64,000 bases of DNA from Thermodesulfobacteriota bacterium (GCA_964291405.2 OZ219926.1:1376001-1440000); one strand, 5' to 3'; counted from the first letter of the stretch, positions 2,358 through 64,000 are shown. Numbers and translations: made by a program. Notes: generated from the letters alone by a model not told the origin.

Positions 2358-4019
2358 ATGACGAACACGACTCAACAGCCACACGGAAACGGATCGCTTG
2401 AATACTGTGACGCCGTCATCATCGGAGCGGGCGTTGGCGGCATGTACGCCTTACACCACCTGCGCGAAATGGGCCTGTCAGTGCGCGTGTACGACGGCGC
2501 CGGCGGTATCGGCGGAACCTGGTGGTGGAACCGCTACCCCGGTGCACGGGTCGATGGTCCGGGCAGTCCTTTCTACTGCTACACCTTCTCGGAAGAGCTG
2601 GTGCGGGAGTGGGACTGGGCCGAGACCCAGCCAAGCCAAGAGCAGGTACTGGACTACCTTGAGCACGTGGCCGACCGGCTCGACCTGCGCCGCGACATCC
2701 AACTTGAGACCTGGATACGCGACGCCCGTTATGACGAAGCGGTCCAGCGCTGGACAGTTGAGACCAGCGGTGGCGAGCGTGTCTCGGCTCAGTTTTTGAT
2801 CTGCGCAGTCGGCACCCTCTCGGCGGCCCACAAACCCGACTTCCCTGGACTCGACGATTTTACCGGTGAGTGCTACCACACCGGCCGCTGGCCGCAGGAA
2901 CCTGTTTCTTTTGAGGGCAAACGCGTTGGCGTGATCGGGACTGGCTCCTCGGGGGTACAGGCGGTTCCTGTAATCGCTCGCGAGGCCGCACACCTGACGG
3001 TGTTCCAGCGCACACCGCAATACAGCATCCCGGCACGTAACCGTCCCCTCGAGCCTGAGTTAATGCAGTACGCCCGCGAAAACTGGGACGAAGTCCGGGC
3101 GAAAATGAACGCCCATCCCGTAGGCATGCCGTTCGAGACCACCTCGCGCTTGGGTATCGAGGACACCCCCGAACAACGCCAAGCGCTCTACGAGGATCTG
3201 TGGCAGAAGGGCAGCTTCAACCTCCTTTTCGGCAGCTATGCCGACCTCCTGACCAATAAGGAGACCAACCGCACGCTGGCCGATTTTATACGCGGTAAGA
3301 TTCGCGAGTGCGTGAAGGACCCCGAGATTGCCGAGAAGCTGATGCCAGACTACTATCTGGGCACCAAGCGCCAGATCCTCGATAATGGCTACTACGAAAC
3401 CTTCAATCGCGATAACGTCACTTTAGTAGACTTACGCGAAGACCCAATTCAGACGGTCACTGCAACAGGTGTACGGACTGAGACCGGCGACCATCCGCTC
3501 GATATGATCGTGATGGCAACGGGCTTCGACGCCATCAGCGGCACTCTGCTGCGCCTCAACCCCAAGGGGCGTGGCGGCGTCGGCCTCAAGGAGAAGTGGA
3601 GCAGTCGCTTCGATAACTACCTTGGTATGGCGATTGCCGACTTCCCCAATCTGTTTATGATCCATGGCCCAGGCTCACCCTCAGTGCTCTATAACATGCC
3701 GCTCGGTGCCGAGCGCGAGACGGAGTGGATCGGCAACTGCGTGCAATATCTACGCGAACGTGGTCTGGGTGCCATCGAGGCGACGCCGGACGCTGAGAAA
3801 GACTGGGACAAAGAGGTCAACGAACTCGCCAACGAGACGCTCTACCCCCTCACTGACTCCTGGTACACAGGCGCCAATATCCCAGGCAAGCCCCGTCAGT
3901 TCTGCGTCCACCTGGGTGGTCCGCTGTACTTTCAGCGCATCTCTGAGGCTGCCGCCAAGGGCTACGAGGGGTTCGTGTTTGAGGAGGAGAACAACGTAGA
4001 CGTCTCCGCCGCGTCCTGA
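2358..4019 (+). CDS. Type I Baeyer-Villiger monooxygenase (CHMO/PAMO-like)
   Basis: GAGVGG, GGTWWWNRYPGARVD, FTGECYHTGRWP fingerprint, GTGSSG, ATGFD, SWYTGANIPGKPR. Confidence 0.95.
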   Translation: MTNTTQQPHGNGSLEYCDAVIIGAGVGGMYALHHLREMGLSVRVYDGAGGIGGTWWWNRYPGARVDGPGSPFYCYTFSEELVREWDWAETQPSQEQVLDYLEHVADRLDLRRDIQLETWIRDARYDEAVQRWTVETSGGERVSAQFLICAVGTLSAAHKPDFPGLDDFTGECYHTGRWPQEPVSFEGKRVGVIGTGSSGVQAVPVIAREAAHLTVFQRTPQYSIPARNRPLEPELMQYARENWDEVRAKMNAHPVGMPFETTSRLGIEDTPEQRQALYEDLWQKGSFNLLFGSYADLLTNKETNRTLADFIRGKIRECVKDPEIAEKLMPDYYLGTKRQILDNGYYETFNRDNVTLVDLREDPIQTVTATGVRTETGDHPLDMIVMATGFDAISGTLLRLNPKGRGGVGLKEKWSSRFDNYLGMAIADFPNLFMIHGPGSPSVLYNMPLGAERETEWIGNCVQYLRERGLGAIEATPDAEKDWDKEVNELANETLYPLTDSWYTGANIPGKPRQFCVHLGGPLYFQRISEAAAKGYEGFVFEEENNVDVSAAS

Positions 4020-9242: not shown

Positions 9243-9423
9243 TAGAGCAAATTACGATTCCGTGTAGCCCTTCGACTTCAGGCGCGTTGCGCCTGCCGCT
9301 CAGGACTAACGGTCTGCCGTTCGTGCTGAGCGTAGCGGAGCGAAGTCGAAGCAGGGATGCCGGAGCGCGTCCGACATGACGAGCACGTAACGGCAGGGCT
9401 ACAGCCTATAGTAAAACGCTCTA
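9243..9423. mobile_element. MITE-like element with internal REP-type palindrome
   Basis: Imperfect terminal inverted repeats TAGAGCAAATTACGATTCCGTGTAGCCC and (reverse complement) TAGAGCGTTTTACTATAGGCTGTAGCCC, each starting with TA; internal CTTCGACTTC...GCTCAG...AACGG/CCGTT...CTGAGC...GAAGTCGAAG. Confidence 0.65.
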
Positions 9424-9527
9424 AGCGAGTAGGGTTACAACTGCCCTGCTCATACCCGCGACATAGGCCGCCCTGCTTTCGGCACTCAGTACCAAGCCGG
9501 TCGATACACAGCTCAGAACAAACGCCA

Positions 9528-10056
9528 CATCCCGCGCAGCATGACCGGGAAGCCTCCCTCCCGATCGAGAACTACGAAGCGCTGAAACGGGAGGGGTTCT
9601 ATGAGCTGACCATCCCCACGAACTTTGGAGGTGGGGGCGCGGGTTTGCTGGACTGGGTGCTGGCCGTCGAGGAGCTGGCCCAAGGGTGTCCGAGTACGGC
9701 CCTCAGCTTCACCATGCATGCCGCCGGGGTGCGGATTCTCATCGACACGCCCACGACTCCGCCGGCCGCCAAACAGCGCATCGCCCAGCTGGTTGCCAAG
9801 GAACACAAGCTGTTTGCCTCCGCTTTTACGGAACCAGGCTCTTCTAGTCTCCTGATCGGCCTGCCCTTTGTCCCGAGCGTCCAAGCCCGGCGAGTCGACG
9901 GTGGGTACATGTTGCAAGGCCGCAAGGCGTTTACCTCGATGGGGGAAGCCAGTGATTATCTGATGCTCATGGTCCATCCGCAGAAATCATCCAATCCCCT
10001 GGAGATGCTGATGCTCCTGGGGCCGTATCCTGCGCCCGGCCTGCGGGTGGAGCATT
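9528..10056 (+). pseudogene. Acyl-CoA dehydrogenase internal fragment
   Basis: HDREASLP..., IPTNFGGGG, EELAQGCPSTAL...MH, TEPG, GRKAFTS; lacks start and the whole C-terminal domain. Confidence 0.85.
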
Positions 10057-10435
10057 TAATGCAGCCATTGACGCTTTGATACATGCCCCAGAGAAAGTAT
10101 CGGATTGCTTCGCTGAAGATGTCCTCTGGATTAACTATGTGCCGCAGCATCTGCCTTATGGTGGTGAGTACAGGGGACTTGATGAACTGGCTAAGCTTTT
10201 CGCTCAATATATGGCAGCGCTCGAAATTGGAAAGCTTGAGTTCGATGAATATTTTGTCACTGCAGACAGTGTTTTAATTGTGACGGGGAACGAATGCGAG
10301 AGTCGGGTGAAATCAACCGGAAAGCATTACACTATGCCGTTTGTTTGGGTTGTCCGTTTTAATGAACATGGAAAAATCAACTATGTACGCGAATATAATG
10401 ACACGTACCCGATGGCAGAAGCATTCAAAGCCTAA
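10055..10435 (+). CDS. NTF2/SnoaL-like protein, probably 5'-truncated (TTG at 10076 is the only candidate start)
   Basis: FAEDVLW, PYGGEYRG, TGKHY, VREYNDT; abrupt shift to AT-rich sequence at the junction. Confidence 0.75.
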   Translation, partial: FNAAIDALIHAPEKVSDCFAEDVLWINYVPQHLPYGGEYRGLDELAKLFAQYMAALEIGKLEFDEYFVTADSVLIVTGNECESRVKSTGKHYTMPFVWVVRFNEHGKINYVREYNDTYPMAEAFKA

Positions 10436-11240: not shown

Positions 11241-12074
11241 TCAGCCGCCGACTGGCCCAAGTGGAACGGGACCGGTTGGGGGATACGAGCCGTCTGTGTC
11301 GTGCACTTCCTGACCGGTCAGCGGTGGGTCGAATACGCTAATGCCGTGAAAATCGCTCAACGCTTTGACGTGATGGCGGTCTTTCGGCCCGACCACATAC
11401 AGGCCGCCGGGACCGATAATATGCACGGCTCCGGTGGCGGAATCGGTCACCTCAAGCGTGCCGTCTAGCACCACGTTTGCTTCCCAGTGGTGTTTGTACC
11501 ACAAGTCTGCTTCCCCGCCCGCTTGCAGGCGGACCGCCGAAAAGGAGAACCCGAGCTGGTCGGCGGCGGTCAAATAGCGGGCCGTGATGGCGACGCCGCC
11601 CGCGATCACCCGCTCCAAGCCCGCATTACGAACATCGGCGAGAGTTCTGACGAACATGCGATCCTGACCTTGAGGAGCATCACCCGTTGGGGGATAGGAC
11701 CCGTCTGCATCGTGGGTCTCATTGCCTTCGAGCGGCGGGGAGAAGACACTGATGACACGCAGGTCTGATGGTTCCTCACAGATGATGCGATGTCGGTCCT
11801 GAGGACCAACGCAATAGAGCACGTCGGGTTCGAGGGGCCAGCGTTCTTCCGTGGCCCGGTTCTCCAGGGTGGCGTTTCCCGAATACACGTAGTTGGCCTC
11901 CCAGTGGTGTTTGTACCAGACATCCAGTGATCCGACCTGCTGTGTCCGGGCTTCAGACACGCTAAACCCGAGTCTATCGGCTTTGGTGAGCAGACGGACG
12001 GCCGTCGCTTTGCCGTGGGCAATCGAGATAACCCGATCATCGGCTTCCAGTTGGTTCATCGTACGAATCAGCAT
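11241..12074 (-). CDS. Tandem double ectoine-synthase (EctC)-like cupin
   Basis: Two repeats, each with LGFS, WYKHHWEAN, YxVGPxDRH, SVFxPPLxGxExHDxDGSY. Confidence 0.85.
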   Translation of the reverse strand: MLIRTMNQLEADDRVISIAHGKATAVRLLTKADRLGFSVSEARTQQVGSLDVWYKHHWEANYVYSGNATLENRATEERWPLEPDVLYCVGPQDRHRIICEEPSDLRVISVFSPPLEGNETHDADGSYPPTGDAPQGQDRMFVRTLADVRNAGLERVIAGGVAITARYLTAADQLGFSFSAVRLQAGGEADLWYKHHWEANVVLDGTLEVTDSATGAVHIIGPGGLYVVGPKDRHHVKALSDFHGISVFDPPLTGQEVHDTDGSYPPTGPVPLGPVGG

Positions 12075-13521: not shown

Positions 13522-14109
13522 TCACCGCATCAGATACAGCAGCGCGAAAAGCGCGATCCACAAGATGTCCACGAGGTGCCAAAAACACGCCCCGCTTTCG
13601 AGCACGCCCACGCCTTGAGCATCAAATTCCGCATCGCGCACGGACTGCCAGAGGAAAACCAGCACGCCAATCCCAATCACCATGTGCAGCAGATGAATAC
13701 CCGTCATCAGGTAGTAGTACATAAAGAAATTATTCGTCTCTATGGTCAAACCGGCGGCAAACTTTTCGCCCCATTCAAAATATTTGATGACGACGAAACC
13801 AATACCGCAAAGGGTTGCCACCACGAAACAGCCGCGGGCCCGCGAAAGCTGGCCTGCCCGAGCGCCGTGAACGGCGAGTGCGACCAGCCAAGAACTCGTC
13901 AACAGCAGCACGGTGTTGAGGAGCCCGAGGGTTTGGTTCAGCAGTTGCTGCTGTTCGACGAATAACGCGACTTCTTGCGATCGATCGTAGACAAATACCG
14001 AGAACAACAGAGAAAAGACCAGGATGTCGCCGATGATGAACATCCACACGCCGGTTTCGCCAGGCAGGTGCGGCTTGACCGAGTCCGGCAGCGCGGAAGT
14101 TGAAGACAT
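13522..14109 (-). CDS. Cytochrome c oxidase subunit III family (NorE-like) protein
   Basis: HLPGE.GVWMFI, NTVLLLTSS, KYFEW, YYLMTGIHLLH, FWHLVDILW. Confidence 0.9.
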   Translation of the reverse strand: MSSTSALPDSVKPHLPGETGVWMFIIGDILVFSLLFSVFVYDRSQEVALFVEQQQLLNQTLGLLNTVLLLTSSWLVALAVHGARAGQLSRARGCFVVATLCGIGFVVIKYFEWGEKFAAGLTIETNNFFMYYYLMTGIHLLHMVIGIGVLVFLWQSVRDAEFDAQGVGVLESGACFWHLVDILWIALFALLYLMR

Positions 14110-16994: not shown

Positions 16995-17297
16995 TTACCC
17001 ACAGACGTTTTGATTGAGATGATCGCGGAGTGTGTCGCCGGTGTATTCGCGCCGGTGCCGCCCGCGCTTCTGCAAGATGGGGACGACTTCGTCGACAAAT
17101 TCTTTGAAGTTGTTCGGCATGACTGTCGGTGTGAGGTTAAAGCCGTCACCACCGGTTTCATCGAGTATGGCTTCCATCTGGTCAGCAACTTGTTCAGGCG
17201 TCCCGACAAGCTGCGGGCAGCCAATCGTTGCCCCGTAGATTTTCCCGACTTCGCGCATGGTCAGTTTGTCTTTGCCCAAGTCGCCGGCCTTATACGC
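16995..17297 (-). pseudogene. NtaA/DszA-type FMN-dependent monooxygenase C-terminal fragment
   Basis: VGTPEQVAD, DGFNL, FVDEVVPILQKRG..RREY.G.TLRDHL. Confidence 0.85.
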
Positions 17298-17517
17298 GGT
17301 TGTTGGTCTGACGAAAACGGCTGCGCTGGAATACGCCAAGGCCGGCATTCGGGTCAATGCCGTGTGTCCCGGGGCGATTGACACGCCCATGATCGCGCGC
17401 AGCGCGCAAGCCATCCCCGGTTTTGATGAACTCGCCGTCGCCATGGAACCTGTTGGCCGTTTTGGCCAGTCGTCGGAAATCGGGGAAGCCGTCGCGTGGC
17501 TGTGTTCCGATGCGGCA
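17293..17517 (+). pseudogene. Short-chain dehydrogenase internal fragment
   Basis: AVVGLTKTAALEYAKAGIRVNAVCPGAIDTPM...PVGRFG...WLCSDAA. Confidence 0.9.
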
Positions 17518-17635
17518 TTGCCGACCCAGGAGTTATTCTTTCCGCAACTGCTCGCCAGTCCCGATGTGATCGCCCTCGTCGCTGAGGAAGGGGAGACGCC
17601 CCGTGGGAGAGCGGGTAGCAGGAGAGGGTTGCGCT

Positions 17636-17667
17636 GTGTTAAAGACAGAACGTGTTAAAGACGGAAC
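17636..17667. repeat. 16-bp tandem duplication
   Basis: GTGTTAAAGACAGAAC GTGTTAAAGACGGAAC immediately before the amidohydrolase RBS. Confidence 0.85.
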
Positions 17668-31035: not shown

Positions 31036-31866
31036 ATGAGTTATATCGACGTCGTCGAGAAAATCGACGTGCCAAGACCGCACAAGCATTATACCGAGCC
31101 CCATTTTGAAGAGGTGCTTGGCCTTCCGATCGCGTATCGCCGCGAGGGGGCGGGCGAAGCGACGGTTTTGTTTCACGGGGCCGGCTTCACACGCATGTGG
31201 CTTCCATTCTATGCCATGCTTGCAGAAAAACTGGACTTCGTTGCCCCCGAGTGCCCCGGTTTTGGAGAAACGCCACTGCCGCAGTGGGTGCGTGGTTTCG
31301 ATGATCTCGCCATCCTCTATGACCAGTTGTTCGAGCAGCTTGGACTCTCCCACATCCACCTCATTGGCTTTTCGATGGGGGGCTGGGCAGCCGCCGAGTT
31401 CGCTTCGTTTTATCCACGCCGGCTCAAATCGCTCTCGCTCATCACCCCGGTTGGACTGCGTCTTGAAGACGATCCCGGAGTCGACATTTTTCAGCTCTCC
31501 CCACCCGAAGTCATGGACCGTCTATTCAAGGACAAGGACGTGATGCAGGAATGGTTACCGGACGGGGAGGATTTCGATGAAGGCATTCATATGTATAGTG
31601 AATTCTCTGCCGCGGCGCGCCTCATGTGGGCACCGCGTTACAACCTCAAGCTCGAACACCGCCTCCAGCGACTGACCTGTCCAACCCAGGTCATTGGGGC
31701 CGAAGAAGACCGCCTTGTCCCGAACGCCATGTCGGATAAATTTGCCGCAGTATTACCGAACTGCCGACTGATCCGCATCGCGGGCACCGGCCACGAACCA
31801 CTTTTGGAACGGCCGCGTGAACTCGCCGCTATTCTGACGGTTTTTATCGAGGAGGCGACACAATGA
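31036..31866 (+). CDS. Alpha/beta hydrolase
   Basis: HGAG, PGFG, GFSMGG, EDRLVP, GH; ATGA overlap with the next gene. Confidence 0.9.
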   Translation: MSYIDVVEKIDVPRPHKHYTEPHFEEVLGLPIAYRREGAGEATVLFHGAGFTRMWLPFYAMLAEKLDFVAPECPGFGETPLPQWVRGFDDLAILYDQLFEQLGLSHIHLIGFSMGGWAAAEFASFYPRRLKSLSLITPVGLRLEDDPGVDIFQLSPPEVMDRLFKDKDVMQEWLPDGEDFDEGIHMYSEFSAAARLMWAPRYNLKLEHRLQRLTCPTQVIGAEEDRLVPNAMSDKFAAVLPNCRLIRIAGTGHEPLLERPRELAAILTVFIEEATQ

Positions 31867-33200
31867 ACAAGCTGCGTTTTTATTTCTTTCACTTGATGCC
31901 CTACCCCCACATTCCGCCGGCGTCTGAAATCCAGTCAACCTGGGTGTCGTTGTCGAATAAGCATTATGACCCCCATCGCGGCCACTCGCTGTACAACGAA
32001 TACCTCGACCAACTCTCCGCTGCTGAACAATTCGGTTTCGACGCGATTGCCGTCAACGAACATCACGCGAATTTCTACGGCACGATGCCGTCGCCAAATA
32101 TTATCGCCGCGATGCTGGTGCAGCGGACGAAAGAAATCCCGATCGGCATTATCGGCAATGCCATCCCCCTGCATGGCAACCCCCTGCGGGTCGCCGAGGA
32201 AATCGCCATGCTCGACGTTATTTCGGGCGGTCGCATTATTTCAGGCTTTGTGCGCGGCATCGGGTGTGAATATTTCAACAACGGGATCGCGCCGGCCGAT
32301 TCGCTGGAACGCTTCAATGAAGCCCATGACCTGATCCTCAAGGCCTGGACTGATGACGGCCCGTTTACCTGGCAGGGCGAGCATTTCTACGTCCCGAATG
32401 TCAATCCAATTCCGCGTCCGATTCAGCAACCCCATCCGCCGATCTGGATCCCAGGCCAAGGCTCGCTCGAAACGTTACAGTTCATTGCGGAACACAAATA
32501 CACCTATATGATGGTGTTCTCTCCCTTGTGGTTCACCAAGATGGCGTTCGACGGCCTGCGGGAAGAGTGTCATCGGCTCGGTTACGACGCACCCAAGAGT
32601 ATGTTCAACGCCTGCGTACCAACCTACGTGGCCGAGACCGACGAGCAAGCGCACCGCGAGGCGAAAGCCCACCTGTCGTGGGTCTTCAACACCGGGCTCA
32701 AAATCCCTGACCAATTCTTTTTCCCGCCGGGCTATATGTCGACCAAGTCGTTTCGCAACTTCATCGGCTTGCTGCAAAAAGGGAAGGTCAAACCGCAAGT
32801 CAACCTGACCTATGACGAGCTGATCGCCGATCGCTATATCATTGTCGGCTCTCCGGAGACGGTCAAGAACGAACTCGGCTACTACTGCGACGAAGTGGGC
32901 GCGGGTGGTATGATCGGCCCGGGCTCGCCCTACGGACCGATGCCGAACTGGATGGTCATGAAGCACATGCAGATCGTTTCCGAGGAAGTCATGCCCGAAT
33001 TCCGCGAAGCCGACGGCTTGCCGGACTACCAGCGAGCCGAACCGAACTCACAACGCTCGCGTGCCGAACTCGCCGCAGTCAAAGGCAAACCGGAAGAAAC
33101 TGCCCGCTCTCGGGTGACGGGCGGCGGCGACAGACTGATCGAACACCGCCTGGCCCACGTTGCAGAGGTGATTGATCCGACAATGGAACACGCACAGTGA
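31863..33200 (+). CDS. LLM-class flavin-dependent monooxygenase
   Basis: NEHH, PSPN, RVAEEIAMLDVISGGR, PRPIQQPHPPIW. Confidence 0.92.
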   Translation: MNKLRFYFFHLMPYPHIPPASEIQSTWVSLSNKHYDPHRGHSLYNEYLDQLSAAEQFGFDAIAVNEHHANFYGTMPSPNIIAAMLVQRTKEIPIGIIGNAIPLHGNPLRVAEEIAMLDVISGGRIISGFVRGIGCEYFNNGIAPADSLERFNEAHDLILKAWTDDGPFTWQGEHFYVPNVNPIPRPIQQPHPPIWIPGQGSLETLQFIAEHKYTYMMVFSPLWFTKMAFDGLREECHRLGYDAPKSMFNACVPTYVAETDEQAHREAKAHLSWVFNTGLKIPDQFFFPPGYMSTKSFRNFIGLLQKGKVKPQVNLTYDELIADRYIIVGSPETVKNELGYYCDEVGAGGMIGPGSPYGPMPNWMVMKHMQIVSEEVMPEFREADGLPDYQRAEPNSQRSRAELAAVKGKPEETARSRVTGGGDRLIEHRLAHVAEVIDPTMEHAQ

Positions 33201-33387: not shown

Positions 33388-34716
33388 ATGCAAATCGGAT
33401 ATTTCACCGAACGACCGTATCGCTGGCTGCCCGAAGAGCTCGTTTTGAAGAATCGGGCGTTTTTCGCCATATCGAACGAGCATTTCGACCGCGAAAAGGC
33501 GGCCGACGACTACAATTACTACCTCGACGAGTATTGCTACGCCGAGGACCTGGGCTTCGATGCCCTGGCCCTGAATGAGCATCATGGCAACCCGATCTGC
33601 ATGGGATCGGTCATGAATGTCGAAGCCTCTATCCTGGCTCGGATTACCAGCAAGGCCAAGATCGTCCTGGTCGGAAACCCGCTGCCGGTACTGAAGCATC
33701 CGCTGCGGATGGCCGAAGAGCTGGCCGAGATCGATCTCATCTCACGCGGCCGCCTGGTCACCGGCTGGGTGCGCGGCGCGGGCAGCGAGCAGTTCTTCAA
33801 TAACGCCAATCCGGCCTATAATCGCGAGCTGTTCAACGAGGCCCACGACTTTATTGTGCAGGCCTGGACCAAGCCGGGACCGTGGCGCTACGAGGGCAAA
33901 CATTTTCATTATCGCCACGTAAATCCGTGGGCGCTGCCCTACCAGAAACCCTATCCGCCGATGTGGATTCCCGGAACGCTGAGCCCCGAGACCGTCGAGT
34001 GGTCTGCCGCACATCGGTATCCGTATATCGGGCTTGGCACCCCGCTCCCGGCCACGTGCGAGCTGTGGGACTTCTACGCGGACGAAGCGGCCAAGCATGG
34101 TTATCAGGCCGGGCCGGAGAATTTCGGCTATATGGTCGCAACGGCCGTGGGAGAGACGGAGGAGAAAGCGCAGCAGGCCGCGGCGGGGTTCGTCTACGGG
34201 GGCGGGCAGAATGCCTTCTCGGGGGCGGAATTTATGATGCCGCCGGGCTACAACTCGAAAGCGGCCATTCGCAACTTGGCGAAGACCCAGACCAGCGCGT
34301 GGCTGGGGATCAGCGGCCAGAAGCTGAAGGAGCAGAAGCAGGATGTCGCGGGCGATATCGATTACGCTGCCATCCGGGGCAAGCTGCAGTCAGCGTTGGA
34401 GCGCGGGCAGCAGAATATGCAGGTGATTGTCGGCACGCCCACGACCGTGATCCCTAAAATCAAGGCGCTCATGAGCGTCCTGCGGGTCGGAATCTTCATC
34501 ATCCTGCACCTGCAGGGACCGCACGGTGATGACGAGCGGCGCACCAGCATGCGCTTATTCGCGGAAGAGGTGATACCGGCGCTCAAGGACCACGCGCGGG
34601 CGATCGATCTGACGGACCCGTTTGAGCGTTCGCCCGGCTCGGTGAGCTTGGGAGCCGGGACCAAGCGGGCGCCCGTCGCGGACCGCAGCCCACTATCCGG
34701 GTTGGGATTCCACTAG
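33388..34716 (+). CDS. LLM-class flavin-dependent monooxygenase
   Basis: NEHH, RMAEELAEIDLISRGR, PYQKPYPPMW. Confidence 0.92.
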   Translation: MQIGYFTERPYRWLPEELVLKNRAFFAISNEHFDREKAADDYNYYLDEYCYAEDLGFDALALNEHHGNPICMGSVMNVEASILARITSKAKIVLVGNPLPVLKHPLRMAEELAEIDLISRGRLVTGWVRGAGSEQFFNNANPAYNRELFNEAHDFIVQAWTKPGPWRYEGKHFHYRHVNPWALPYQKPYPPMWIPGTLSPETVEWSAAHRYPYIGLGTPLPATCELWDFYADEAAKHGYQAGPENFGYMVATAVGETEEKAQQAAAGFVYGGGQNAFSGAEFMMPPGYNSKAAIRNLAKTQTSAWLGISGQKLKEQKQDVAGDIDYAAIRGKLQSALERGQQNMQVIVGTPTTVIPKIKALMSVLRVGIFIILHLQGPHGDDERRTSMRLFAEEVIPALKDHARAIDLTDPFERSPGSVSLGAGTKRAPVADRSPLSGLGFH

Positions 34717-36242: not shown

Positions 36243-37190
36243 ATGAAAATCGGTGCCCTGACCCCTACCTGGACCGGCTCACTTGCCGGGCAAACGCCGA
36301 CGATCCAACAGTCCTTGGCGTTTGCCCGACATGCGGAAGCCATCGGCCTCGACAGCATTTGGCTGACCGACCATCTGTATTGGGAAGCCTATGCCGACTT
36401 CCGCGCGGTGGGAATCGAGTTGCCGGCGGAATGGGAGGGAGTCAAAGGCGGGCAGTGGGAGTGCTGGACGTTTGCCGCGGCCCTCGCGACGCAAACGTCC
36501 ACGATTCAAATCGGGACCTTGGTCTCCAATACGACCTTCCGGAATCCGGCGTTACTCGCCCGGACGGCGGATAATGTGAGCGCCCTGAGTAACGGCCGTC
36601 TTATTCTCGGCTTGGGGGCCGGTGATTTCACGTCCGAGCATCGCGCGTATGGCTTTGATTTCGAGCGGAATGTCAGCCGCTTTGAGGAGGCGCTCCATAT
36701 CGTCCTGCCCCTGCTCAAAGGTGAGCGTTTCTCCTATACGGGGGAACTGCACCGGGTTGAGGATGCGGAACTGCTGCCGCGTTCCGAGGTCGGGATGCCG
36801 CCGATTTTGATCGGGACATTGAAGGGTAAGCCGCGCATGTCCCGCCTCACGGCGCAATATGCCGATATGTGGAACTGCATGATCGCGTTTAACGATTGCG
36901 CGATCGAGACGTTTCTCGGGGCCTGGGAACCGATCCGCGTGGCCTGCGAACGGCACGGGCGCGATCCCCGGACGCTTTCTCGGGGCGCGACGGTGGCGGT
37001 CAATTTCACTGATGGGCCGTACGAGATTATTCCCACCTCGGTGCCATTCTCCGGTTCGATCCAGCAAATCGCCGATCGTTTTGCCGAGTACGCGGCGCAC
37101 GAGGCAGAGCATGTGTCCGTGATTCCACACCCGTGGAACGAGGAGGGGCTCGATAAACTCGCCGAAGTCGTGGCCTATCTCCGCAAGTAG
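36243..37190 (+). CDS. LLM-class oxidoreductase
   Basis: DSIWLTDH, ECWT, FRNPALLA, SNGRLILGLGAG. Confidence 0.92.
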   Translation: MKIGALTPTWTGSLAGQTPTIQQSLAFARHAEAIGLDSIWLTDHLYWEAYADFRAVGIELPAEWEGVKGGQWECWTFAAALATQTSTIQIGTLVSNTTFRNPALLARTADNVSALSNGRLILGLGAGDFTSEHRAYGFDFERNVSRFEEALHIVLPLLKGERFSYTGELHRVEDAELLPRSEVGMPPILIGTLKGKPRMSRLTAQYADMWNCMIAFNDCAIETFLGAWEPIRVACERHGRDPRTLSRGATVAVNFTDGPYEIIPTSVPFSGSIQQIADRFAEYAAHEAEHVSVIPHPWNEEGLDKLAEVVAYLRK

Positions 37191-53199: not shown

Positions 53200-54420
53200 C
53201 TACCGTTCTTGGGCCTGACGAGCCAGCCGCGCGTACCCGTCACGGGTCTGCGGCAAGCGGCGGTCTAAAATCCGCGATGCGATGACCGTGCGCAGGATCT
53301 GGGCCGTACCGCCCCCAATCGTGAACATGCGAGCGTCACGCACCATGCGTTCAGCCGGTGTATTGCGCGAATAGCCTTTGGCTCCAAACACCTGTAAGGC
53401 GTCATTTGTGACCTTAATGGCCATTTCCGAGGCAAACAACTTTGCTTGCGCGGCCGCATTCGGGTCCGGGAACGGGCTGTCGTGGGAGCCGCGCGAACGG
53501 GCCGCGCTGTGGATCATGAGCCGCGCCGCTTCGATCTGCGTCGACATATCGGCCAGCATCCACTGCAAGCCCTGAAACTCGGCAATCGGCCGACCAAACT
53601 GTTCCCGATCCAAAGCGTATTGTTTTGCTCCTTCATAGGCTCCGGTTGCCAGCCCCAAAGCAACCGTGCCCGCGCCAACCCGTTGGGTGTTGTAAGCGTT
53701 CATTAATTCGGCAAAGCCGCGCCTGAAGCCGCCCGGCGGTGTTAACACGCGGTCGGCGGGCAGTTCGAGATCTTCGAAATATACTTCGGCCTCAGGAATA
53801 CCCCGCAAGCCCATCGTGGGCTCCCGTTGACCGATGCGCAACCCACGATCCTGGTCGCGAACGGCAATAAATCCACCGATGCCCTGCTCTGTCCCCTGTC
53901 CGTCAAACACGCGGGCGAAGATCAGATGGAGTTGCGAAACACCGCCCCCGGTAATCCAGTGCTTCATGCCGTTCAGCACATACGTATCGCCGTGTTTATC
54001 GGCTCGCGTGGTCATCTCCGAGGCGGCGCTGCCGGCCTGAGGCTCGGTAATACAGATGGCGGGCTTATCCCCGGCCAGGACAAGAGCGGCGGCGAGATCT
54101 TTTTGTGCCGGCGTGCCGTAGTGCATGATGGCGGAAAGCGCCCCCATATTCGCTTCGACCGCAATGCGTCCGGTCACCCCGCACACTTTTGCCATCTCTT
54201 CGATGACGAGCACCACATCGAGATAGCTCAGTCCTGTCCCACCGAACTCCGGCGGGACGGTCATGCCAAAGAATCCAGCTTCATGCAACGCACGGACATT
54301 CTCCCAGGGGTATTGTTCGCTGCGATCGACCTCCGCAGCACGCGGTGCGATCACGTCCTGGGCCAATTCGCGCGCCCGTGCCCGTAACGCAAGCTGCGAC
54401 TCAGTCAGCGTGTAATGCAT
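53200..54420 (-). CDS. acd: 3-sulfinopropionyl-CoA desulfinase-like acyl-CoA dehydrogenase-fold enzyme
   Basis: EQYPW, GRI, LAGDKPAICITEP.AGSAASEMTTRAD, WITGGGVS.LHLIFARVF, AYN.QRVGAG, RDARMFTI, LPQTRDGY match Acd of Advenella as recalled. Confidence 0.85.
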   Translation of the reverse strand: MHYTLTESQLALRARARELAQDVIAPRAAEVDRSEQYPWENVRALHEAGFFGMTVPPEFGGTGLSYLDVVLVIEEMAKVCGVTGRIAVEANMGALSAIMHYGTPAQKDLAAALVLAGDKPAICITEPQAGSAASEMTTRADKHGDTYVLNGMKHWITGGGVSQLHLIFARVFDGQGTEQGIGGFIAVRDQDRGLRIGQREPTMGLRGIPEAEVYFEDLELPADRVLTPPGGFRRGFAELMNAYNTQRVGAGTVALGLATGAYEGAKQYALDREQFGRPIAEFQGLQWMLADMSTQIEAARLMIHSAARSRGSHDSPFPDPNAAAQAKLFASEMAIKVTNDALQVFGAKGYSRNTPAERMVRDARMFTIGGGTAQILRTVIASRILDRRLPQTRDGYARLARQAQER

Positions 54421-57051: not shown

Positions 57052-58881
<1,830 letters not shown>

Positions 58882-61796: not shown

Positions 61797-62786
61797 TTAA
61801 CCCAGATGGGGGAGGACGTCGGCGGCAAAGCGCTGCATAGACCCCCGCGACACAGCGCGATCCATGCCGGGGAAATGGAAGAACAGCACGAGTTCATCTA
61901 TGCCCGACTCAGCTTCAAACGCTTTGATCTCATCGAGCACCTTTTGTGGTGGGCCGGTGAAGAAATTACTCAGGTCACGGAATCCATCAGACGTATTCGT
62001 GCGGTCTTCTGGTTTGTCATTGGCTTCATGCATCCACTTGGCGTAATAATCGACCTGGTAGTTGACGTGCGGCCAGACTTTATCTAACTCGCTGTCGTCT
62101 TTTTCGGTCACATAGCACGAACGCAGGATGCGGACCTGGCCGGGCTCGCGGCCGAGGTCGGTACAGGCCGTCCGGTAAATATCAATGTCTTCGGTGTTGC
62201 CAATGGGCAGAAAATGACAGCCCATGCGTGCCACGCGCTGAATGCCTTTTTCGCTCCGCGCCCCAACCATCAGGGGTGGCCCTCCAGGCTGGGCTGGGGA
62301 TGGCGTGACCATAATGTCGGTGTAGTTCCAAAACTTCCCAACATGAGAAAATGTTTCCCCAGACCACGACTTGCGGAGGATGTCGACACCTTCGGTCAGC
62401 GCTGAGCCTCGTCGCTTGTGATCCTTTTCAAAGCCTGTAAACTCGCCTACGCGATAGCCCTGGCCCAGGCCAAGAATGAGCCGGCCTCGCGAAATGAGAT
62501 CGACGACCGCTGCGTCTTCGGCGACACGAACGGGGTCGTGCAGGGGGAGGAGTAAGACGAAGGTGCCGAGACCGATGCGCTGTGTTCTGGCAGCCACCGC
62601 TGAGAGGACGGCGAGCTGGGAGGGGAGATAGCCATCCTCAAGAAAATGGTGCTCCGTCGTCCACGCGGTATCAAAGCCGAGCTCTTCAACGGCAACCATA
62701 TCGTCGATGGTATCGTTATACAGGTCGGCGTAGGGTTGCGCCCATTGGGGCGGATTCCGAAAGTCAAATAAACAGCCTGTCTTCAT
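61797..62786 (-). CDS. LLM-class flavin-dependent oxidoreductase
   Basis: WTTEHHF.EDGY.PS, P.RVAEDAAVVDLIS.GRL.LGLG.GY. Confidence 0.92.
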   Translation of the reverse strand: MKTGCLFDFRNPPQWAQPYADLYNDTIDDMVAVEELGFDTAWTTEHHFLEDGYLPSQLAVLSAVAARTQRIGLGTFVLLLPLHDPVRVAEDAAVVDLISRGRLILGLGQGYRVGEFTGFEKDHKRRGSALTEGVDILRKSWSGETFSHVGKFWNYTDIMVTPSPAQPGGPPLMVGARSEKGIQRVARMGCHFLPIGNTEDIDIYRTACTDLGREPGQVRILRSCYVTEKDDSELDKVWPHVNYQVDYYAKWMHEANDKPEDRTNTSDGFRDLSNFFTGPPQKVLDEIKAFEAESGIDELVLFFHFPGMDRAVSRGSMQRFAADVLPHLG

Positions 62787-63002
62787 TACCTTGCTCCTTT
62801 CGTCAGGGCGAAAATGTTTGGTCTTGCTTGAATAGACGAGGTCTCGTGTCCACGACGGGCCGGTGGGCCTACATGTGAGCGGGAGTCGTCAGAATAAGAC
62901 GGGAATCCTCCAGCCCATCATTCCGATAATGGACAATGGCCCGATGGTCGGGGTTCTGCACCAGTTTCCCTTTCTTCCAGCGACCTCACACGATGCACGG
63001 CC

Positions 63003-63998
63003 TTATCCGAGTGTATTCACCGCAGATGGGAACGTGTTGATCCCCAGCGCTTCCCGAAAATCCGCGGTGGGTTGCACGACCATCGCATCGACGCTGATGC
63101 CAATCGCATTGGCGACGCGGTCCAGCATGCTGAAGTTGCCGCCGATGATCGACGCCGTCGTGACCGCCTCGGGACCTAATCGCTCGGCAATGGCATCCCG
63201 TGCGGCCGCCAGTTCTGCGGTATCGGGTTTCATCAAAGCACCGGCGAATCTCACGAGTTCGCACCCGTGTTCCACCCCGCTGTCAATACGTGCATCGATC
63301 GCGCCAGCTAACTCGTAGCTTCGATCGTGGGCTTTTCCGCTCTCCCGGAGCAGATGGGCATGCCACGTGGTTCAGTAGAAACACAGGTTCTGTTCCGAAA
63401 CCTTGGTTGCGACGAGTTCTATCTGTGCTCGCGAAAGTGCGTGGTCTGATGTGGCGTGAAAATTGAGCAAATGCTCAGCTCCGAAATACTGTTGACTGAC
63501 CAGGTTAATCACGCGGCGGGCTTCATCCGGGACGAGGCTCACGGCGCGAAAAATATTCCCCGCCGGACTTTCTCCATATAACGATTCGGCTAATGCGCCA
63601 CCTGCCGGAGCGCTGGGGACACTCGCGGTAAAGAATCCCTCATCGACGGCTTCGGCGGGGCGTTCGAAAGAGGGGAGCGTATCGTCGGCGAGCTCCGGTA
63701 ATTTTCGGGGTGGTATGCCAAGACCGCGGGCAAAGACGTCAAGATTGGAGAGTCGCGACACCAGCGAGACGATTTCAACATACGCGCCCTCGCTCACACC
63801 CTGGGCTTGGATGTTCTGGCAAAACTTGCGATCGATGTTTTGCGAATCAACCGCCACCGCCCGTGCCAATCGCACTGCCGCGTCAGGGAGTTTGGCCTGG
63901 GCGACCAGCTTCTCATCGTCGACCGATTCTTGTAAGCCCTGTTCGCATTGAGCGATACGCGCAGTGGCGGCAATGGCGGTTCTCTGTGCGGCGGTACC
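63003..63998 (-). CDS. AhpD-like alkylhydroperoxidase-related selenoprotein (partial; in-frame UGA at 63372-63374)
   Basis: ORFs 63372..63875 and 63003..63275 are in the same frame, joined by 32 stop-free codons: LSRAQIELVA..VS..NLCFY-UGA-TTWHAHLLRES; frame is open to the window edge. Confidence 0.8.
63336..63354 (-). promoter_or_regulatory. Candidate bacterial SECIS hairpin
   Basis: UCUGCUC-CGGGA-GAGCGGA; apical loop begins 24 nt after the UGA and has G at position 2. Confidence 0.6.
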
Positions 63999-64000
63999 CC

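Follow-up and report, generated by a model that had tools for sequence, protein, structure and literature searches.

A single gene on the minus strand, at the end of the 64-kb window (the whole stretch of DNA that was analysed), very probably encodes a selenoprotein of about 363 amino acids that belongs to the NCBIfam family NF041238, with one in-frame TGA read as selenocysteine (Sec). It is best described as a genuine selenoprotein of an already known kind that is routinely mis-split, and its value lies in annotation, with low novelty. The observation reported in a preliminary description of this DNA was confirmed, and its interpretation as a hidden selenoprotein is supported by the results given below.

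Reading frame and family assignment

A single frame on the minus strand extends from position 63998 to a TAA at 63005-63003 and is broken only by the TGA at 63374-63372, in agreement with the preliminary description, which had reported two open reading frames (ORFs) in one frame with only a TGA between them. When the TGA is read as U, the join becomes ...SEQNLCFY-U-TTWHAHLLRESG..., which reproduces the junction described earlier (NLCFY*TTWHAHLLRESG). The visible protein has 331 residues and database homologues stop before the TGA, as expected from the earlier claim of one protein of more than 330 amino acids split by gene callers. Past the TGA, the first in-frame ATG, GTG or TTG comes at codon 33 (GTG), and the 32 codons ahead of it hold neither a stop nor a start, again as described. 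The features of the locus are as follows (coordinates, strand, description):

63375..63998, minus strand: first coding part, 208 codons corresponding to residues 33-240 of the ~363-amino-acid protein; 5' end cut by the window edge; ends in ...SEQNLCFY; assigned by its match to the NF041238 profile from position 24 onward
63372..63374, minus strand: TGA codon, very probably read as selenocysteine; U209 of the visible protein, approximately U241 of the full-length protein; motif C-F-Y-U-T
63006..63371, minus strand: second coding part, 122 codons in the same frame as the first; TTWHAHLLRESG...NTLG
63003..63005, minus strand: true stop TAA, which terminates the read-through frame
63336..63354, minus strand: SECIS-type hairpin; 5' arm 63354-63348, loop CGGGA 63347-63343, 3' arm 63342-63336; overlaps the codons of H-L-L-R-E-S-G
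63360..63419, minus strand: codons of the AhpD-type proton relay; E194 63419-63417, C206 63383-63381, Y208 63377-63375, U209 63374-63372, H213 63362-63360
61797..62786, minus strand: LLM-class luciferase-like oxidoreductase of 329 amino acids, co-directional downstream neighbour after a 216-nt gap; given as context, with putative operon membership

Given that 38 complete relatives begin with an ATG 32 codons upstream of the first residue seen here (lengths 361-374 amino acids), the first 32 codons of the gene probably lie outside the window.

The read-through protein scored 285 bits against NF041238 (cutoff 175, E=9e-85) and covered profile positions 24-356 of 357. This is an equivalog model, to which the curated whole-protein cutoff was applied; it is named 'alkylhydroperoxidase-related (seleno)protein' (AhpD_rel_CFYUT) and its members are expected to consist of an N-terminal region followed by an AhpD-fold domain, with a full length of approximately 357 amino acids; 331 residues of the gene product are seen in the window. 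The C-F-Y-U-T motif of the window protein is identical to that spelled in the model name and occurs as NLCFY-U-TTWH; the columns of the motif, defined with Sec or Cys at its fourth position, are invariant in 39 sequences. A full-length relative that is 96% identical to the window protein (L006) scored 307 bits, and the clade of Binatia and gammaproteobacterial forms as a whole scored 285-307 bits, with 359-440 bits for other members. Five full-length non-Sec forms (four with Cys and one with Gly at the Sec column) also scored above the cutoff (359-415 bits).

General models of the AhpD superfamily gave scores below their thresholds: 19.2 against a gathering score of 23 for Pfam CMD (PF02627), 37.9 bits against a cutoff of 81.8 for the peroxidase-related model TIGR01926, and 26.6 against 27.8 for the AhpD core domain (TIGR00778). 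Since NF041238 was matched far above its cutoff and the general models were not, the protein is assigned to NF041238 and not to the classical single-domain 'AhpD-like' selenoproteins. The label 'AhpD-like' used in the preliminary description stands for the AhpD-fold domain and for the CxxU motif with its His, but not for membership in the classical AhpD-like group, given the TIGR01926 score. Those classical proteins (AhpD-like 1, COG2128/TIGR01926, and AhpD-like 2, PF02627), as they are presented in PMC1088965 and PMC2398784, have in common with the window protein an AhpD/CMD-fold catalytic domain, CxxU and a bacterial SECIS straight after the UGA; they are single-domain proteins of approximately 180 amino acids, whereas the window protein carries an additional N-terminal region of approximately 160 amino acids.

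According to a table in a 2026 review (PMC13188914), NF041238 corresponds to 'hypothetical protein 1' of the 2005 Sargasso Sea selenoproteome, which Zhang, Fomenko and Gladyshev (PMC1088965) introduced as a set of four sequences in which a CXXU motif is conserved and a bacterial SECIS is predicted. As far as the family is presented in these sources, it shares with the window gene the CFYUT motif with its CxxU, the predicted length, the two-part layout and the SECIS hairpin past the UGA, and no essential difference was seen between the two. The earlier statement that the class is not new thus holds, with a description in 2005 (PMC1088965) and a curated NCBI model. AhpD-like selenoproteins in general are presented as abundant in marine metagenomes in PMC2398784. 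A full-text literature search for 'CFYUT' returned nothing.

The selenocysteine column, the active site and the hairpin

A word-indexed homologue search listed 120 homologues, nearly all of approximately 240 amino acids and covering 63% of the query. All 22 of the database homologues selected for alignment end at C-[FLV]-Y, one residue ahead of the TGA column. The DNA of 41 related loci was taken from species-representative genomes by using a 14-sequence alignment of close relatives, and these loci span 32-96% protein identity to the window protein. Seventeen are labelled Candidatus Binatia or Binatota (16 at 82-96% identity, and L029, a second copy at 58%), 22 are proteobacterial MAGs (Gammaproteobacteria, Proteobacteria, Pseudomonadota, Enterobacteriaceae) and one 'uncultured bacterium' (43-69% identity), and two lie at 32-34% identity. 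The codon at the Sec column is TGA in all 41 loci, with a mixture of TAA, TAG and TGA as terminal stops.

A profile search of 1.84 billion representative proteins returned 2530 matches at E<=0.001, 224 of them at E<=1e-30. By manual count, 96 of the best 150 representative clusters among the 2530 matches end exactly at profile position 240, and the same best 150 also include full-length proteins of 324-429 amino acids. In 34 aligned full-length distant relatives, the Sec column is occupied by Cys (29), Gly (3) or Ser (2). The column is likewise Cys in the AhpD-fold proteins of the PDB entries 6k40, 2oyo and 2pfx, where it is the second Cys of CxYC. As judged from these alignments, the Sec and Cys forms are a classical Sec/Cys pair. 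The expectation that homologs would have Cys or UGA at this column, with conservation on both sides, was borne out by the TGA in 41 of 41 loci and the Cys in 29 of 34 full-length relatives.

A profile built from 39 family sequences matched solved AhpD-fold proteins over positions 159-333 (6k40, E=6e-13; 2oyo, E=2.7e-9; 3c1l, E=8.8e-9; also 2pfx and 2prr), and Mycobacterium tuberculosis AhpD (1gu9/1knc) was matched at E=0.035. In pairwise alignment to the solved structures, the Sec column pairs with the second Cys of C-x-Y-C, followed by His, which agrees with the earlier proposal that Sec replaces the second Cys of a CxxC motif followed by His. The C-terminal two thirds of the protein are thus assigned, from aligned sequences and structures, to an AhpD/CMD-fold domain in which Sec occupies the second Cys position of CxxC. 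In mycobacterial AhpD, the second Cys is the attacking nucleophile. The N-terminal region of approximately 160 residues had no sequence match in Pfam or the PDB; a comparison of this region with the AhpD domain by hhalign (E=0.03, probability 1.6%) gave a weak hint of internal duplication.

Five relay columns, E226, C238, Y240, U241 and H245 (E194, C206, Y208, U209 and H213 of the window protein), are invariant in the 39 read-through sequences. The corresponding residues are given in PMC3141380 as Glu118, Cys130, His132, Cys133 and His137 for the proton relay of M. tuberculosis AhpD and as Glu36, Cys48, Tyr50, Cys51 and His55 for PA0269, and by these numbers the relay spacing of the window protein is identical to both. 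The three proteins (1knc/1gu9 for M. tuberculosis AhpD, 2o4d for P. aeruginosa PA0269) thus share a five-residue relay of the form Glu...Cys-x-(His/Tyr)-Cys...His, in which the middle residue of the window protein is Tyr, like that of PA0269. Unlike both, the window protein has Sec for the second Cys and is double in length, and its role as a peroxidase adaptor is putative.

That this organism inserts Sec, what redox reaction the protein carries out and which partner it has are inferred along the following lines. A ribosome would arrive at the UGA (63374-63372) and the hairpin 17 nt downstream, with its CGGGA loop, would be bound by SelB carrying Sec-tRNA(Sec), upon which selenocysteine would be inserted and 122 further codons translated. 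By analogy with its family, the product would be a thiol/selenol oxidoreductase, alternating between a selenol/thiol pair and a selenenylsulfide, that hands on reducing equivalents either to a peroxidase or to a small oxidised substrate. Many relatives have a GST-family gene next to this one, and the partner could therefore be glutathione-linked. No measured selenium incorporation, enzyme activity or other biochemical characterisation of any family member was found in the literature.

The hairpin named in the preliminary description (a 7-bp stem with the loop CGGGA, beginning 17 nt past the UGA) was found at 63354-63348 and 63342-63336. It has an energy of -8.6 kcal/mol when folded alone, and its 5-nt loop begins 24 nt past the TGA. 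A published bacterial SECIS (bSECIS) model, in the form stated in PMC13188914, has a loop of 3-9 nt, an upper stem of >=4 bp, a G in the first two loop positions, a distance of 16-37 nt from the UGA and an energy of <=-7.5 kcal/mol. The window hairpin falls within all of these limits (5-nt loop, 7 bp, 24 nt, -8.6 kcal/mol), and the bacterial SECIS search proposed earlier was in this way positive with respect to the constraints published there. The geometry of the model was found in 40 of 40 sequences of relatives, each with a hairpin of 4-9 pairs and a loop of the form CG[U/G]G[A/G/C] that starts 24 nt after the UGA. An energy of <=-7.5 kcal/mol was reached by 12 of the 40 hairpins folded alone and by 38 of 40 in a constrained 57-nt fold.

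The core of the hairpin (C-T-C C-G-K G-A-G A-G) is invariant or nearly so in nucleotides and is fixed at synonymous sites. The Leu codon in the hairpin is CTC in 40 of 40 sequences, against 30.5% of the Leu codons elsewhere in the same 40 genes, and the Arg codon is CGK (CGG or CGT) in 40 of 40, against 31.6% elsewhere, with the commonest Arg codon, CGC, absent. Similarly, Glu is encoded by GAG in 38 of 38 (42.5% elsewhere in the same genes) and Ser by AGY in 40 of 40 (45% elsewhere in the same genes). Synonymous choice is free at the Thr and His codons a few positions upstream of the core. The 11-mer CTCCGKGAGAG occurs once in the window (0.02 occurrences expected) and once in 37 of the 41 loci at a constant offset from the TGA; the four loci that lack it are two truncated contigs and the variants L033 and L034. 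Unlike the folding energy, this 11-mer exceeds chance, as does the fact that all relatives examined keep the TGA, the frame and the loop sequence. Part of the conservation in the hairpin region is at the protein level, since L-R-E after the motif is also kept in Cys-containing solved AhpD-fold proteins.

Folding energy was rejected as evidence for the hairpin, given that it is not significant in the window: the z-score against shuffles is -0.57, with 50 of 200 shuffles folding equally well, and when the codons of the window are recoded synonymously, 14.8% of the versions are as stable. Among the 40 sequences, three natives rank in the best 5% of their own synonymous recodings (median rank 0.27). 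Covariation was also weak, with 80.2% of cells paired under the 7-bp model and 78.5% in shuffles, and with double changes in two of seven pairs; RNAalifold retained only the 3 invariant apical pairs. In one subgroup of relatives, the lower stem is in a shifted register with a bulged U, which is part of the reason that covariation is too weak to stand alone. We read the conserved feature as an apical stem-loop, short and sequence-specific, that lies at SECIS distance, as predicted from the pattern of conservation, and not as a strong helix.

The stem-loop shares with the E. coli fdhF-type SECIS its position in the coding sequence just 3' of the UGA and a G followed by G/U in a small apical loop, and the bulged U of the stem is present in the one subgroup of relatives only. 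It differs in that its sequence is unrelated, its stem is short (4-9 bp) and without an Rfam match, and binding of SelB is here a prediction. An Rfam scan of 62900-64000 returned only a chance-level match to flg-Rhizobiales (13 bits against a gathering score of 55), and Rfam holds no model for this SECIS-type element.

The gene products that would deliver Sec are encoded near two of the relatives. In L028, a tRNA-Sec gene (1136-1229), selB, selA and a fusion of an oxidoreductase (Ndh) to SelD lie 3-9 kb upstream of the gene, and in L040 a tRNA-Sec gene and selB lie beside it; in the other 39 of 41 loci, no Sec machinery was found within 10 kb of the gene. Within the 64-kb window, there is no tRNA gene of any kind, selA, selB and selD had no match among the 69 larger ORFs, and tblastn of the L028 Sec-machinery proteins gave no match.

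This absence of Sec machinery among the genes of the window, together with the unremarkable stability of the hairpin, would suit a reading in which the UGA is decoded as an ordinary amino acid (Cys, Trp or Gly), either by near-cognate decoding or through a lineage-specific change of code. Such decoding is nevertheless very unlikely. TGA serves as a normal stop in the window, where the gene for cytochrome oxidase subunit III (13522-14109) aligns with its profile up to the final position and is terminated by a TGA, and it is also the terminal stop of the very gene discussed here in the Binatia loci L007, L009 and L011; that TGA ends ordinary genes in the window and this gene in its own Binatia relatives argues against a general code change. 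The recoded site is moreover a redox-active Cys position, where Sec usually sits, and it is followed at SECIS distance by a conserved loop with G-G/U. The Sec operons beside two relatives and the curation of NF041238 by NCBI as a selenoprotein also speak against an ordinary amino acid.

Coding constraint past the TGA

The frame after the TGA runs for 122-131 codons in the 39 loci that reach far enough and contains neither another stop nor a frameshift. Differences between the window and relatives of the same length cluster at third codon positions downstream of the TGA, as they do upstream; for L015, differences at codon positions 1/2/3 number 22/17/64 downstream and 56/41/129 upstream. In the first 32 codons past the TGA, a segment ahead of any start codon in Binatia, 71 synonymous and 49 non-synonymous differences were counted over 15 Binatia comparisons, which are not independent of one another. 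As far as these patterns of substitution indicate, the tail after the TGA evolves as coding sequence under purifying selection.

If the TGA were instead a real stop, the locus would encode a 240-amino-acid protein and a separate C-terminal protein made from an internal start, as two genes or as halves that assemble. Gene callers everywhere split the locus in this manner, C-terminal fragments are stored as database entries of their own (e.g., P0235, 116 amino acids), and the window and 14 of the 15 close Binatia loci (L014 being the exception) have a GTG 33 codons past the TGA. Across 40 sequences, however, the position of the first in-frame start past the TGA varies from codon 2 to codon 47, and there is therefore no conserved restart; an independent start for the second part, which the preliminary description had named as grounds for abandoning its reading, was thus not seen. 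The codons ahead of the start (T-T-W-H...) are conserved as protein with free synonymous change and include the catalytic His, and a stop inside the CxxC motif would take away a catalytic residue. Full-length relatives are in addition single proteins with Cys at the column. A real stop is on these grounds extremely unlikely, and a single read-through gene is preferred.

A pseudogene, or a nonsense codon introduced by sequencing error, has next to no probability: some related MAG contigs do have breaks in a neighbouring gene (an in-frame TAG in the GST gene of L021 and a TAA in that of L037), but the same TGA in 41 of 41 loci from independent assemblies already refutes this reading by conservation, and the 122-131 downstream codons of 39 loci are under purifying selection with no other stop or frameshift.

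Genomic neighbourhood, lineage and annotation

The last 7 kb of the window are collinear with Binatia MAG contigs at approximately 95% nucleotide identity (95.5% over 5885 nt for L001), and the window is therefore placed in a Candidatus Binatia genome. In a quick unrooted tree, 37 Sec forms fall in one clade (support 100), apart from a pair of Sec forms, L040 and L041. The window and the other Binatia sequences, 16 in total, make up a single clade (support 100) that is nested among Sec forms of Gammaproteobacteria, and the gene may accordingly be a horizontal acquisition. The close relatives seen all use Sec.

In 11 of 15 Binatia loci, too, a homologue of the LLM oxidoreductase follows the gene on its strand. 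Immediately upstream, 18 of 39 loci have a GST-family gene, which is transcribed divergently in all 15 of the close Binatia loci and co-directionally in L015, L021 and L037. In the window itself, the upstream (GST) side of the gene falls beyond position 64000. AhpC was not found among the 69 ORFs of the window, and the side upstream of the gene lies outside it. Neither terminator-like nor promoter-like sites were found in 62600-64000. The GST neighbour was also considered as a second selenoprotein and was rejected, because the codons that break it are TAG in L021 and TAA in L037, and not TGA. A scan of the GC-rich window for in-frame TGA joins gave 98 candidates, and apart from the present gene none of them combined a recognised gene with a convincing redox motif.

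The use of selenocysteine appears to be unrecorded for the Candidatus Binatia lineage: in the full-text literature, nothing was found that ties Binatia or Binatota to selenocysteine, although the selenoprotein database of PMC13326102 may list Binatia. One full-text match for Binatota together with seleno- has the term in its reference list only. A broader proposal, in which the gene is at once the first recorded sign of UGA read as Sec in Candidatus Binatia, a horizontal acquisition, and an AhpC-independent, glutathione-linked hydroperoxide or disulfide reductase that acts with the neighbouring GST, is unlikely to hold in all of its parts together.

With the family in print since 2005 and covered by a curated NCBI model, no new biology follows from this window, and the meaning of the result is one of annotation. 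In almost all public records, standard callers truncate the gene at the UGA. NCBI names a gammaproteobacterial member 'alkylhydroperoxidase-related (seleno)protein', yet the stored protein is the 240-amino-acid truncation, and the Binatia members are unnamed in the public collection. Reading the gene correctly restores a catalytic residue and one third of the protein, and marks the organism as a likely selenium user.

Origin of the Binatia copies

In a quick, unrooted tree of 73 family proteins, the 16 Binatia sequences of the AhpD-related family grouped as a single clade, which was nested among Sec forms from Gammaproteobacteria. One Binatia MAG carried a second Sec copy (locus L029, on the same contig as locus L011), which was 58% identical and grouped with proteobacterial sequences in the same tree. 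This nesting and the grouping of L029 hint at horizontal transfer of the family gene, although the tree is unrooted and comes from a quick search.

Genes near the selenoprotein gene and its relatives

The most recurrent neighbour of the selenoprotein gene was a GST-family gene (GST_N + GST_C), found upstream in 18 of 39 loci; in the window, the upstream flank where it would sit is beyond position 64000. Two examples are:

L001:8898-9716 (-), GST-family gene
L015:9028-9861 (+), GST-family gene

In locus L021, 37 nt separated the end of the GST-family gene from the start of the selenoprotein gene. The GST-family gene was interrupted in-frame in L021 (by TAG) and in L037 (by TAA), neither of which is TGA. 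Additionally, P0096, a 226-aa database protein encoded on a 1.28-Mb contig, had a GST N-terminal domain fused to the middle of the AhpD-related protein. The AhpD-related portion was 86% identical and its C-terminal end was likewise at CFY; P0096 may have arisen by rearrangement or by chimeric assembly.

In the gammaproteobacterial MAG behind L028, a compact Sec operon lay upstream of the family gene at a distance of 3-9 kb, and Sec genes were also present in locus L040:

L028:1136-6955, tRNA-Sec, selB, selA and a pyridine-nucleotide-disulfide-oxidoreductase/SelD fusion
L040:7144-9553, tRNA-Sec, a thioredoxin-reductase-like gene and selB

Other enzyme genes and partial genes in the window

The window was rich in luciferase-like oxidoreductases of the LLM/F420 type, of which it contained five copies, and several GST-like genes were also present within it. 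The enzyme genes and partial genes noted in it were:

576-1418, 31863-33200, 33388-34716, 36243-37190 and 61797-62786, LLM/F420-type oxidoreductases
2358-4019 and 57052-58881, two Baeyer-Villiger-type flavin monooxygenases
9357-10435 (+), acyl-CoA dehydrogenase, N-terminal part (240 aa, ending at TGA), then an overlapping 119-aa ORF in a different frame
11241-12074 (-), 277-aa protein with two tandem matches to an ectoine-synthase subfamily model (130 residues; 224 bits, cutoff 128)
17257-17658 (+), SDR-family reductase, only the C-terminal third open (profile positions 162-236 of 253)
53200-54420 (-), acyl-CoA-dehydrogenase-family gene (3-sulfinopropanoyl-CoA desulfinase equivalog model, 675 bits against a cutoff of 600)

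The 277-aa protein is a duplicated cupin. The acyl-CoA dehydrogenase at 9357-10435 is possibly a frameshifted or split gene. The SDR-family piece looks like a gene fragment, the remnant of a rearrangement; within it, 17294-17516 (223 nt) was 96-98% identical to DNA of loci L001 and L008 that lies upstream of their selenoprotein gene, at a distance of about 8 kb.
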